A stretch of DNA of 64,000 bases from Octopus vulgaris (taxonomy: Eukaryota), in assembly GCA_951406725.2 (NCBI GenBank), contig OX597830.1, positions 44,640,001 to 44,704,000 on the forward strand. The letters are read 5' to 3'. The translations under genes were made by a program, and so were the position numbers. Numbering within the stretch: the first letter of the stretch is position 1; each line of letters opens with the position of its first letter. This document shows positions 4,561-30,579 of the stretch, one piece after another. The notes beneath the pieces were generated by a model that saw nothing but the letters and a program-made list of their open reading frames with translations, searched no databases and was not told where the DNA came from.

Positions 4561-4979
4561 TGAAAAACGACCGTTATACAAAGGGAAATTACTGTGTGAG
4601 TGACCGCTAGTAAGACAAAAGAGCTATTTGAATGACCTCTAAGTGAGGGGAGGGAGTAAAAGTAAGAGGGTAAAAAGGTTCATAGTATTCGCGTAAGCGT
4701 GCATGTTCATACCTACACATGCGTGCCCGCACACCAACGTGCATGCGCCTAAAAGTATTATACACTCATCCACCCTCACTTGAAACATACACAACCTCAC
4801 CCGCACCATTCGCCAAATATATATATATATATATATTTATATACAACCCCCCCCCCACGCGCGCGCACAAAAAAGTTCATACCCACGTCTATATGCACCT
4901 ACAGACATGGAAAACAGGGCTAAAGGCTATATATATATATATGTGTGTGTGTGTGTGTGTGTGTGTGTTTGTGTGTCTG

Positions 4980-5257
4980 TGGAGGCGCAATGGCCCAGTG
5001 GTTAGGGCAGCAGACTCGCGGTCGTAGGATCGCGGTTTCAATTCCCAGATCGGGCGTTGTGAGTGTTTATTGAGCGAAAACACCGGCAGCGGGTGGTGGC
5101 GATCCCTGCTGTACGATTTCGCCGCAACTTTCTTCTGTTGGCCTGCTCGCTTAGCCAGCGGGGTGGCGTCATTTGAAGGCTAAATCAATGCGAAGCGCAT
5201 CGTGACAAGCGATGTGTAGCAACATCTGATAGCCTGGTCGGTCACGTGATTACGTGA
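4980..5257 (+). mobile_element. tRNA-derived SINE
   Basis: A box-like TGGCCCAGTGG and B box-like GGTTTCAATTCC. Duplicated at 14304-14600 and 24163-24459, with a diverged relative at ~45330-45600. Confidence 0.85.
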
Positions 5258-5703
5258 TATATATATATATATAAATATATATATATATATATATATATAT
5301 ATATATATATATATATATATATATATATATATATATATATATATATATATATATATATATATAAGTTCTAATTTACTCTAATTATGCAAAAAAGTCAGTA
5401 GCTGGTTCAACCATTGCGTAATATAGTAGTTATCACTACTAATAAAGAAAATTTATTTTGCTCTATGATTATGTAAAATAGTAAACTAATCTATCACTAG
5501 GAGAAATAGAACGCTGTTCCACATATGTGAAAAATAATAATCAGCTGTACATTGGTATACTGGAAAATGTATTAAGATATTCATAAGCAAAATTTATAAG
5601 GTTGCTGTTAATACGGAGTCTTTGATGAAATTCCAAAACACTCATTGGTCATAATTTGTGCAAACAGAAGTAATAGAGAAATAAATGAAAAACATTAAAT
5701 TAC

Positions 5704-5773
5704 TTGGGATTCTTCGTCACCATAACTGTCTTCTTCAGCCAATGATTCTAAATTCCTCTCAGAAGATAGTGAT
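5704..5773 (-). CDS. Predicted micro-exon (type B, 70 nt, phase 2->0), copy 1; (L)SLSSERNLESLAEEDSYGDEESQ
   Basis: ttttttgtAG|exon|GTaatt. Only one of three frames is open, and that frame is phase-compatible with both neighbouring type A exons. Confidence 0.75.
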
Positions 5774-7344
5774 CTACAAAAAATGAACCAAGGAGGAAGT
5801 TTAAGATTAGTGAAAGTTGTTTGTCATATGGAGTGTAGTTAACATTCTGGACATTTGAACTTCATCTAAAAGTTGAGAAAAGGAGAAAAGTGATATTGTT
5901 GCATGGGTTGGGAGCAAGAAACAATGGAATATTATTGAAAGACTAATATAGGAGGTGATGAGAAGGATGACCAAGAGGGAGTTAAGGTCAGAATGAGTCA
6001 GAGGTTAGAGGTATGGTCAGGGTCTGGTGAGCAAAGGCGGAGAGGAAAGCTAAGAACATATGAGGAGACGGTAGATAGATTCAGTGAGGATTATGAATAA
6101 ATTTATGGAGTAATATCTATGTATATTTAGACCTGTTGTGAAATTAGGAATACATTTCAATAAGTAGCTTTGAACAATTTTATTTCAAAAGAGAGGTCAG
6201 CAAATCTTGACGAAGTGCTCAGACAGTAAAACTCGTCAGTTTGATTTTTATTACAAGCTGCTGAAAATATACTTCATAGACTTCATTTCACATCAAAAGG
6301 TACATTTACGCATAAAGTCTGGGGTGTAAATACTCATGTAATTAATATCAAGTCATCAAATTTCTACAATTTTCAAATGGCATTTAACTGGTACAATTTT
6401 GATTGTGTTTTGATATATAGCCTTCTGCCATTTATCTCGGTTTTGTGGGATGTGTAGGTGTGTGAGATCTGATGAACTGTAAAAGACAGTTAATCTGCTT
6501 AATTAAATTCACATCTCTAGAAAAACTTCTGTTTCAATGTATGATTTCTTACATAAAATAAGACCTCAAGTTTCAAGAATTACCATAAGGTATTTTGTTT
6601 GACCGTTTTATAATTCTGCTAATCCACTACATTTTCTTCAAATGTATATTAAGACACAAACAAACAGTAACATTAGAAGAGATAAACTGATAGGTTAAAC
6701 ATTTCTGACTTGACTGTATGTATTTGGTGGAGATACTTAGCGTTTATGGGGCAAATTTCAAAGCTACACTAAATACACGGTGGTAACACACTTTACATTG
6801 TTCTTAGTTTGCACGGATTTACTTGAGCATCGCTTTTGTTGGAACCAAAATGTTTTCGCTTTTCCCTTTATATCTACAGGAAACCCCTTTGTAGTTTCCG
6901 ATTCAATGTTTCCTTTTCCTTACCGTTATAACGTCATTTCATTTCTTCAATACAAAAGGTTCTGACTAATGCTTAAGTAAGAATTAATATCATATATTTA
7001 TAAATATCTGATAAATATTTTCGAGACAAAATAATAATTTGAAATGTCCAGAAAATTTGATTTTTTTAGAACTGAAAATATATTATCAAATCTAGTTCAA
7101 AATGGTTAAAGTCGTCAACAGAAACTATGAAAGAGTGAAGTATAAAAGAAAAAACAGAAGCAAAGAAACAATCAAAGCCAGTGAAATTGCTGGATCTCTT
7201 GTAACTTTAAAACAAACATCACAACTACATGGTTACATTACATCAACAAAGGAAAATACTTTACTTCAAATAGAATATAAAATCCAATATCACCATAATA
7301 CCTATACCAATATATATATATATATATATATATATGTATATTGT

Positions 7345-27800: not shown

Positions 27801-28090
27801 TAACACACACACACAAATAACAAAGCATATTTCATCTACTTTGTTCGAGTATCTCAACCGATCAGCATGTAACTTCCTTTCGGCTTTCGGAACCGCAACT
27901 CCAAATCACCATGCAATAACCTATCACTAGACCAAGGAAATTTTACCTCCGATCAGAACTGGACCCTCAAGAAAATAAACAGACTGACTCGGTAAGAGAA
28001 TCAAACAACATGACCATTTCCCACAGGCAAGACAACCAGGCAGAATGTTAAACTTGGTCTCCAGAAAGAATAAGAATAAGAATTATAACG

Positions 28091-28249
28091 AGGGAAGGCT
28101 GATCTCCCTTTGCAGGCTGGCAAGGACACCGAGATGGTGTCAGCCCTTCTGGTGACGTCGATGATCGCCTGGGGCTAAATGCATCAGTAACACACCCACC
28201 ACCCCGCCCTGTCCCTAGCCACATTGAGATGGCTGATCCCCCTTATGTT
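28091..28249 (+). mobile_element. Short GC-rich insertion present only in duplication copy 3
   Basis: Replaces aatc in aattataacg[aatc]aaaaattata of copies 1 and 2. Shares gatgatc.cctggggctaaa..cagtaacac..tagcca.attgagatggct with the palindromic repeat at 45647-45818. Confidence 0.75.
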
Positions 28250-29404
28250 AAAAATTATATTTTTTCACAGAAAAGAATATAGATACACTGATTCCAAAGC
28301 AGTCCTTTACAGGCGAAAAACCCTCTACGCGACGGTAAAAAGAATCACATGCAAGATGAAAGAAACTCTAACAAAATCCCTTTTGCTTACTCTCTTCTTT
28401 CTGTATTTGTTTCTCTCTTAACTCAGTATGATTGAACTTTTGGCGATCCACATATTTTATATACTTCGCCCATCATTTTCTGATATTATTGAATTTTGTG
28501 AACATTTAAACTTTAAACATATTGATCTACATTTTTTACATTCTTGACCGATCATTTTTGATACTATTGAATTTTGCGAACATTTAATCATTTAAATATG
28601 TTTTCTACTTCGCAAACAAAATAGGGCCTTGGGACCGAGGAGAGGAGGTAACGCTTAGAAAATGTCTTGAAGGATGGTGAACATAGCGACAGAAAATTTG
28701 CGACTGTTCAGCTACAGGACCAGTGTAAGAAGGGAAGAAAAGGGGTACTGACAGTTGGTCACGCGACAGCAGCAGGCAGAGGAGAAAGACTGCAGGGTGA
28801 GAGAACGACAGAGAAAAATAGGGAAGGGATGAAGGGAAAGAAGAAAGGCTGGGAATACAAGAGAGAGAAGGAGTAAGTAGAAAGTCTATAATAAATAAAT
28901 ACACACACACACATATGTGTATATCTATATATATATTAAGTATGTAAGTATGTTTTAAAATGTGTGGGCTATTTACGGAGTGCTCATAGAGAGCCTATGC
29001 GAAAAAATACAGAGTAGAGAACATTTAAAACGCAAGTCTTAGGAAGTCAAACAGATTCCCGAACGCATAAAGGAAAAATTTCAATCGAAGTTGTTGAATC
29101 ATATATACTTATACACATCAACATAAATCATGCATGTACAGGCGTGAAAATTCCCCAAGGTTATAAAGAATGAAATCAAACATACATAGAAATATAGAAG
29201 AAATATAAAACATATGTAAAAATACTTATCAAATTACATATAAATAAATTTACACGCAAAGATTTATACGTGATAAATATAGGAGGTGCAAAGTGGATGA
29301 GAGCTTGGTACATTCTGTAAGGATCAGATATCGAGATATGTAGGTATTTAGTGGGTCTTTCGATATGACAAAGAAAGTTTATCTGGAAATGTCTGTCTAC
29401 TTAC

Positions 29405-29463
29405 AAATCATCAAAAAATGTCGATGACAAAGACGGTTGAATTTGTGTTTCTGTTGTTTCAGG
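29405..29463 (-). CDS. Predicted micro-exon type A, copy 3; PETTETQIQPSLSSTFFDD(L)
   Basis: ccctctttcctctAG|59 nt|GTaagtag; frame open. Confidence 0.78.
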
Positions 29464-30579
29464 CTAGAGGAAAGAGGGAAAAACAATGTTAATTGTTGAA
29501 AGAAACGTTTGGGTTAGTATTTCTAGGTATAGAAAACAAGTTTTAAGTAAAATATAAGTTTGAAGGAGGAGGTATATAAGTAATAGTAGTAAGCAAGAGG
29601 CAAAGAATAACCACATCTAAAAGTCTAACAACTACACACGGATATAGACACAGAAAAATCCATTTACAGAAAAAAGATAAACAGTTTTATTTTCAATTTA
29701 GTTTTAGAGATTTCAACATAGTTAGCATCATTGAATTCAAAGAATGTCTGAAATCGTATTTACAACTATTTTATTTTTATGAAGTCCAGTATTTATGATT
29801 TCAGTTCAGATCCTTTTAATATCTTACTAATTTAGGCATAATTAAATAAAATCTTTAGGAAAATAATATCATCAGATGCAATATGAAACACAATTTATAT
29901 ATATATATAAATGAATTATAAAGTTCACATCCTGAAATCATCAAAAGACTCCCAAAAACCTAAAATTCAAAGAAGGAAAACAGTAAAAACATTAAATAGT
30001 TCTATAAGTTATAAAAAGTTTTTTTTAAATTATGATGAACATATAAATATCATTTAAAGTAAGTTTATTTAAGCGTGTACATATTAATTCTACATTTTCC
30101 CAATTGAAGAACGGACATATATTCTTGCGTGAGAAATGCCTAAAAAAATAAAACGATGCCAAATACGCTTTTAACAACTTCATCACCACCAGAACGCAGG
30201 TCATATTGATCCCATGTAATCTCCTCCATGTTCCGAGGTTAACATTCAGTCTCTTCTATAAAGCCAAAAGTCCTGTGATCGGTGAAACACATACACGCAC
30301 GCACGCGCACACACACACACACACACACACACACACACACACATACATACGTCCGTGTGCACATATGATTGTGTGTATTATCTATGTATATATATGTATA
30401 TATACATACATACATACATACATACATACATACCCATTGACTTGCCACTGGTGCTTATAGTGTCGAATACTTTCGGTATGCAAATTAGGGACTCTTACAT
30501 AGAGTAACTGCTGCATTTGCTGAGCATATAAACAGTTAGGCTGCTTGCTTCCCTGGAGACTGTCAGAATAATGTAGACG

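Follow-up and report, generated by a model that had tools for sequence, protein, structure and literature searches.

What has a recently triplicated stretch of an octopus gene done for the protein that it encodes? The question is raised by a 64,000-nucleotide window of Octopus vulgaris DNA (assembly GCA_951406725.2, contig OX597830.1; C17:44,640,001-44,704,000, with no N inside), which carries three copies, A, B and C, of a unit that holds two short exons of one minus-strand gene and is predicted to add a 43-amino-acid module per copy. The host is a TRPM-derived gene. The reading judged probable here, short of being firm, is that frame-neutral two-exon blocks were multiplied in tandem at the front end of this TRPM-derived gene and that the acidic modules they encode have been reshaped by diversifying selection. 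Positions without the prefix C17 refer to the window, the whole stretch that was analysed; public protein models are cited as P and public contig runs as X, each with a number.

The triplicated unit and its gene

Self-BLAST of the window recovered three cores of about 6 kb, with unit spacings of 9,324 and 9,859 bp, and a tail common to A and B (11005-14164 and 20016-22959). Each core holds, on the minus strand, one 59-nt exon (phase 0 to 2) and one 70-nt exon (phase 2 to 0), together 43 stop-free codons, and the splice sites of the three 59-nt and three 70-nt exons are AG/GT in 12 of 12 cases. In a three-way alignment the cores differ by substitution at 3.33% (A-B), 3.63% (A-C) and 3.52% (B-C) of sites, or at 1.9-4.6% when cleaner segments are used, and all 37 insertion or deletion (indel) events are intronic, none falling in exons. 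An earlier note on this DNA had described just such near-identical cores, with both exons, 12 intact splice sites and no exonic indel, and self-BLAST and alignment bear that description out. The same note drew evidence from intact exons lying amid indel-rich introns; this argument was rejected, as three copies have a probability of 0.46 of escaping frame-breaking indels within 129 nt and one of 0.65 of keeping all splice dinucleotides invariant. The contrast between exons and introns is within chance for three copies and proves little.

4942-11005, minus strand: core A, the 3'-most copy in gene direction
14266-20016, minus strand: core B, the middle copy
14796-14843 and 15473/15474, minus strand: private marks of core B, a 22-bp tandem duplication and a 126-bp deletion, respectively
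24125-30111, minus strand: core C, the 5'-most copy, with a private insertion of ~155 bp at 28092-28249
45033-45038, minus strand: likely start, ATG and one codon before a GT donor
38931-38983, minus strand: 53-nt exon, phase 0 to 2, an older relative of the 59-nt exon with flanking intron 72-73% alike
31257-31305, minus strand: 49-nt exon upstream of module C, phase 2 to 0; its joint to the 59-nt exon, with GT-AG ends, is found in X16 and X17
29405-29463, minus strand: 59-nt exon, copy C; homologous joints in RNA-type contigs of the family
24814-24883, minus strand: 70-nt exon, copy C; homologous exon in RNA-type contigs of the family
19305-19363, minus strand: 59-nt exon, copy B
14976-15045, minus strand: 70-nt exon, copy B
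10259-10317, minus strand: 59-nt exon, copy A, phase 0 to 2; present in public model P0003
5704-5773, minus strand: 70-nt exon, copy A, phase 2 to 0; read-through beyond its donor meets a stop after two codons
397-440, minus strand: 44-nt exon after module A, phase 0 to 2; the gene then runs left beyond the window

To the left of the window lie further short exons and then three SLOG units. The exon order of the gene is start, 53, 49, three times the 59-70 pair, 44, 49, 59', 46 and 41 nt, SLOG1, SLOG2 and part of SLOG3; phases 0-2 and 2-0 alternate in all N-terminal exons, and the reading frame is open across all 14 of these and the eight SLOG1 exons. The module exons were missed by a strict splice-site scan and recovered by a looser one. 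The start at 45038 agrees with the N-termini of P0005 and P0008, and in three of five paralogues checked its motif recurs, 6.1-6.4 kb ahead of the 53-nt exon. The public first exon of P0003 (47249-47443) was rejected because it lies in simple-repeat DNA; the start of model P0002 was rejected because it matches intron sequence, which leaves P0002 uninformative on module number in O. sinensis. The O. vulgaris model P0003 (CAI9735241.1) itself contains three modules and three SLOG stretches, and an open chain runs from 45038 into the first SLOG exon. The claim that the triplication is intragenic and contributes 43 codons per copy therefore holds, and the module exons are supported as coding exons of one gene.

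A TRPM-derived host

A homologue search returned 23 proteins, with octopus records leading, and all five downstream exons matched PF18139 (SLOG in TRPM), four of them above the curated cut-off. The SLOG exons of the host gene were mapped at C17:44.61-44.50 Mb. A Pfam scan of P0003 found SLOG families only, with DUF1220 homology absent, and an ESM Atlas search likewise returned only SLOG clusters (top score 0.90). By these resemblances, the host is a TRPM-derived gene with three tandem SLOG domains downstream of the modules, an encoded channel being only a candidate. A three-SLOG channel at the host locus was considered and not adopted because of a 100-N gap at C17:44,495,808, after the fourth SLOG3 exon and 144 kb downstream of the window, which is the sole gap in C17:44.42-44.78 Mb.

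The N-terminal Cys-rich segment, a TRPM family feature in the description available from PMC13143021, is absent from the host: P0003 goes from the 41-nt exon directly into SLOG, whereas P0013 (XP_036366346.1), a canonical octopus protein, carries the segment ahead of its SLOG. Human TRPM2 binds ADP-ribose (ADPR) through Y295, R302 and R358 according to the account available in PMC6759353. With pocket positions assigned by alignment through P0013, the corresponding residues are F/R/P in SLOG1, deleted/R/R in SLOG2 and S/K/exon absent in SLOG3; the full set is kept by none of the host SLOG units, and P0013 itself has F/R/R.

Probable diversifying selection on the module exons

Nine exon sites vary among A, B and C, each of them nonsynonymously. 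Among 22 family copies, 37 nonsynonymous variants were counted against two synonymous ones (p 5e-4), a count that left out one 67-nt copy of the 70-nt exon with compensating changes. In a one-ratio codon model of our own, omega is 9.9 (p 1.4e-5) when the 59- and 70-nt exons are taken together and 6.4 (p 3e-8) over the whole set of module exons; SLOG1 has a value of 2.05 (p 0.018, with three frameshifted exons and two non-SLOG1 rows excluded), and for the first SLOG1 exon (85 nt, C17:44608487-44608571), omega is far above 1 among seven paralogues (p 0.0015). Divergence of the 59-nt exon is 10.8%, against 3.9% in its intron, and the exon is the more divergent in 60 of 66 pairs. Because synonymous variation (0.075) matches that of the flanking intron (0.091), homogenised introns do not account for the nonsynonymous excess. 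Strong diversifying selection on the module exons across the paralogue family is, from these comparisons, likely.

Paralogues and other Octopus species

Cassettes of the host gene recur at 93-97% identity at many C17 sites, and at least six recent paralogues with 0-2 modules each lie on the same chromosome. The host gene has three 59-70 pairs, against 1, 0, 2, 2, 2 and 1 in six C17 paralogues, and is the only one among these in which the pairs are adjacent. A catalogue of 69 short exons in nine regions, which left out two distant regions and matches below 85%, showed AG/GT in 69 of 69, and its 16 length variants are all multiples of three. Module number also differs between species, with two adjacent modules in O. 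sinensis P0004 and one in its inferred O. vulgaris orthologue at 68.85 Mb.

SLOG units group by position across three Octopus species, and the multi-SLOG layout is therefore older than the split of these species, which is placed at 13-34 million years (My) in the portions available of PMC13282606 and PMC10925132. Members with MHR3/4 and an ion-channel domain are present in the same cluster. The gap-free stretch C17:79240001-79720000 carries, on one strand and in order, modules, four SLOG units, an acidic exon-pair linker, MHR3/4 and the channel; there are two frameshifts in its upstream part, and it is split into the public models P0008 and P0010. At C17:68.4-68.65 Mb, a gap again lies ahead of the channel. 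TRPM members that stand further off, with channel exons as well as related short exons, lie at 43.0, 44.3 and 56.9 Mb of C17, and an inverted duplication of 49-53-49 exons stands beside a scaffold gap at C17:69122222-69146130.

Age and origin of the copies

At 0.0036 substitutions per site per My, the rate given for O. bimaculoides in the available part of PMC13282606, the copies are 2.7-5.1 My old. Five segments contain all three copies, and in three of them A, B and C form one clade (support 0.94, 0.99 and 0.86); the inner branching of A, B and C differs among those three segments, as is expected from local duplication with exchange. The introns upstream of the 59-nt exons point to the route.

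10318-11005, minus strand: ~650-bp intron block common to all 59- and 59'-type exons, with equivalents at 19364-20016 and 29464-30111
11006-14265, minus strand: tail between cores A and B, the intron from the 70-nt exon of B to the 59-nt exon of A; ends in a TC/TA/TG microsatellite
20017-24124, minus strand: tail between cores B and C, carrying a 184-bp tandem pair
22337-22969 and 23142-23774: fold-back inverted duplication in the B/C tail, 98% alike

Past position -640, the likeness of A and B to 59'-type introns is 93-98%, against 45-46% to C; inside the ~650-bp block and downstream of it they resemble C. A and B are chimeras, and the crossover would lie near the outer edge of the block. The A/B and B/C tails match the 70-to-59' intron of a one-module paralogue (C17:68.858-68.862 Mb), where the B/C-tail stretch with the fold-back duplication is single (68.858 Mb), and the intron downstream of A matches the 70-to-44 intron of four other paralogues. 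Misaligned exchange within the block could have generated extra tail-59-70 units, which would have been tolerated since the frame survives the addition of any 0-2/2-0 exon pair. It is likely that the units arose 3-5 million years ago through unequal crossing-over.

Expression and isoforms

A search of sequencing runs listed no holder of RNA type, a result that has no bearing on expression. Among contigs taken to be of RNA type, those of X16 and X17 (two studies) join the 49-nt exon to the 59-nt one with GT-AG ends, and those of X17 also carry the joint between the 59- and 70-nt exons. Both X16 and X17 have contigs that read on past the 70-nt exon into intron sequence, with a stop in frame after two codons. 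Among the 15 joints listed there is neither a 70-to-59 joint nor a skipping joint, contigs being prone to drop rare forms. In RefSeq models of an O. sinensis paralogue locus, isoform P0028 is without four module exons that P0026 has, and isoforms P0026 and P0027 have different SLOG first halves with the same channel. The suggestion that whole modules might be skipped in frame thus stands as far as phases allow it and as a paralogue isoform displays it; for the host gene, no such joint is listed.

Weighing the explanations

Several observations weigh against the favoured reading. The nonsynonymous excess is borderline for A, B and C alone (P 0.056), the 49- and 53-nt exons are not significant on their own (p 0.18 and 0.26), the codon model is one without recombination between copies, and the pairs compared are not independent. 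A, B and C do not form one clade in two of the five segments. Channel exons do follow on the same strand beyond the gap at C17:44,495,808, with C17:44472673-44472931 out of frame, and MHR3/4 exons were found neither before nor after that gap. A frameshift occurs in 3 of 37 paralogue SLOG1 exon copies, so pseudogenes or assembly errors may be present in the family. The RNA status of the contig runs is a guess, and their alleles are those of paralogues: X14 equals the 68.85 Mb paralogue at 28 of 28 listed sites and X17 the 79.64/68.47 Mb paralogues at 3 of 3, which validates the splice sites for the family and not for the host gene. Finally, the modules are probably disordered, a judgement for which their composition is the basis.

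Some of these observations would suit extra modules that are neutral passengers of a recombination-prone cluster with gain and loss of exon pairs that leave the frame intact, a cluster in which the host gene may be silent or in decay, whatever selection has done to other members. Intactness within chance, RNA-type alleles of which none is specific to the host locus, frameshifted paralogues, an out-of-frame channel exon past the gap, and the borderline test of the three copies taken alone all agree with this account; it is nevertheless considered unlikely, as nine of nine changes among A, B and C alter amino acids, the frame is open through 14 N-terminal and eight SLOG1 exons, and omega in the family is far above 1. 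Those omega values are equally left unexplained if the array serves isoform diversity, with in-frame skipping or stopping and with selection concerned less with module sequence than with how many splice products there are. Alternating 0-2/2-0 phases throughout, the P0028 isoform and the X16/X17 read-through to a stop would accord with such a role, although the phase pattern follows from the copying of one unit, neither 70-to-59 nor skipping joints appear among the 15 listed, and the read-through may be unspliced RNA. This account is compatible with the favoured one and, as the principal explanation, somewhat less probable than neutral accumulation.

That the triplication is an assembly artefact, produced by false duplication of haplotypes or of paralogous reads, is highly improbable. 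The cluster does contain many paralogues at 93-97% and several scaffold gaps, and none of the listed public contig pieces bridges the unit junctions or the 126-bp deletion of B. However, the region is gap-free, and three mutually distinct copies (3.3-3.6%, 37 indels) are more than two haplotypes can supply. Public contigs of four runs, with three organism labels and from three studies, were compared with copy B at 98% likeness, contig depth not being taken as copy number. Of 22 pieces tested, 17 matched B best, three tied and two matched another copy better, in a comparison that covered 22 of 32 listed rows and did not apply unlisted differences, which favours B in about 10 pieces. The 22-bp duplication of B has a single occurrence among the fetched regions and is bridged by contigs of X1 and X3, while six zero-difference pieces (X1, X2 and X3) match B alone. 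Marks private to B under three organism labels make an artefact unlikely. Together with the age of 2.7-5.1 My, they also remove the words "in progress" from the earlier note's picture of a protein repeat expansion; what remains of it is a module number that varies among paralogues and inferred orthologues.

Possible function and related systems

The 129 residues of the modules include 31 acidic, 4 basic and 41 serine or threonine (S/T) residues, with 13 S/T-x-x-D/E motifs, presumably kinase motifs. An AlphaFold model of P0003 (8-row alignment; mean predicted local distance difference test score, pLDDT, of 34) was not used. On the favoured reading of selected acidic modules, the cytoplasmic tail would form a variable binding or phosphorylation surface ahead of an altered nucleotide-binding SLOG array, and module number and sequence would tune the regulation or recognition properties of each paralogue. 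A role of the family in defence or stress sensing is the preferred guess.

A more far-reaching interpretation, speculative and rather doubtful, is that giant variable sensors evolved from a TRPM2-like ancestor, with a selected disordered tail that varies in copy number, up to five SLOG domains whose pockets differ and a shared channel reached via alternative splicing. It is suggested by a gap-free 445-kb locus that has modules, four SLOG units and channel in order, and by the P0026 and P0027 isoforms, which join different SLOG halves to one channel. If it is true, one cluster would supply receptors for many nucleotide-type or pathogen-derived signals.

Among known systems, beta-TRPM or TRPM2-like channels (human TRPM2; Nematostella TRPM2, PDB 6co7; P0013) share SLOG (MHR1/2) and the start of MHR3 with the octopus family. 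They possess one SLOG unit where the family has three to four in tandem, and the host gene differs further in its long acidic exon-pair tail, in the missing Cys-rich segment and in ADPR-pocket residues that are altered in each SLOG unit. Olduvai (DUF1220) repeats of primate NBPF resemble the octopus case as an exon-doublet repeat with tandem growth within a young gene family, and the available portion of their description reports them as disordered and positively selected (10.1101/2021.07.06.450945). In contrast to Olduvai, the octopus module has 43 amino acids rather than ~65, is attached to SLOG, is present in three copies and not dozens, and has no homology to it. Kringle IV type 2 (KIV-2) of LPA, in the accounts available, is likewise repeated in tandem inside its gene in units of several kb, each copy adding one repeat to the protein; it is a folded kringle with demonstrated allelic copy-number polymorphism and little sequence variation, whereas the octopus copies diverge at amino-acid sites. 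The octopus array is a frame-neutral two-exon unit in tandem within one gene, and its copy number differs among paralogues and species.

The table of a cephalopod TRP survey (PMC13402157) contains canonical octopus beta-TRPM accessions and, within that table, none of the multi-SLOG accessions searched for, and a metazoan TRP survey (PMC13143021) gives, in its available part, one MHR1/2 per protein. The literature drawn on also includes 10.1101/2024.05.23.594666, in part. The literature searches turned up no account of octopus TRPMs with several SLOG units or of the 43-amino-acid repeat, although subscription papers or supplements may hold one. Among 183 proteins, at least three SLOG units occur in seven from octopus and in one garbled sturgeon model; two-SLOG models occur in jellyfish, oyster and two others, so tandem SLOG is not unique to octopus. 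Tandem duplication of an exon pair is ordinary. What matters is the setting, an apparently undescribed, lineage-specific and seemingly positively selected modular family derived from TRPM, which would be a candidate, open to testing, for a part in octopus defence or sensing and would parallel, in an invertebrate, the growth of Olduvai-type repeats.

Other elements in and near the window

Sequences resembling mobile elements lie within the array and elsewhere in the window.

4983-5256, no strand assigned: repeat beside a (TG)n tract where the homology of the three cores stops, with equivalents at the starts of B and C; taken to be SINE-like
11747-12148: transposase remnant in the A/B tail, presumably mariner-type by its motif
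55210-58257, plus strand: intact-looking open reading frame of 1015 amino acids with endonuclease and reverse-transcriptase motifs, which we take to be a LINE
50118-52285, minus strand: reverse-transcriptase open reading frames inside 49067-52678, flanked by 93% inverted repeats (49067-49540 and 52174-52678) and assumed from their motifs to be Penelope-like

To the right of the window and upstream of the gene start, a second triplication at C17:44709853-44731479 comprises three copies of 7.2 kb at 99.8% identity that differ mostly by indels; it either arose by duplication very recently or is an artefact of assembly.

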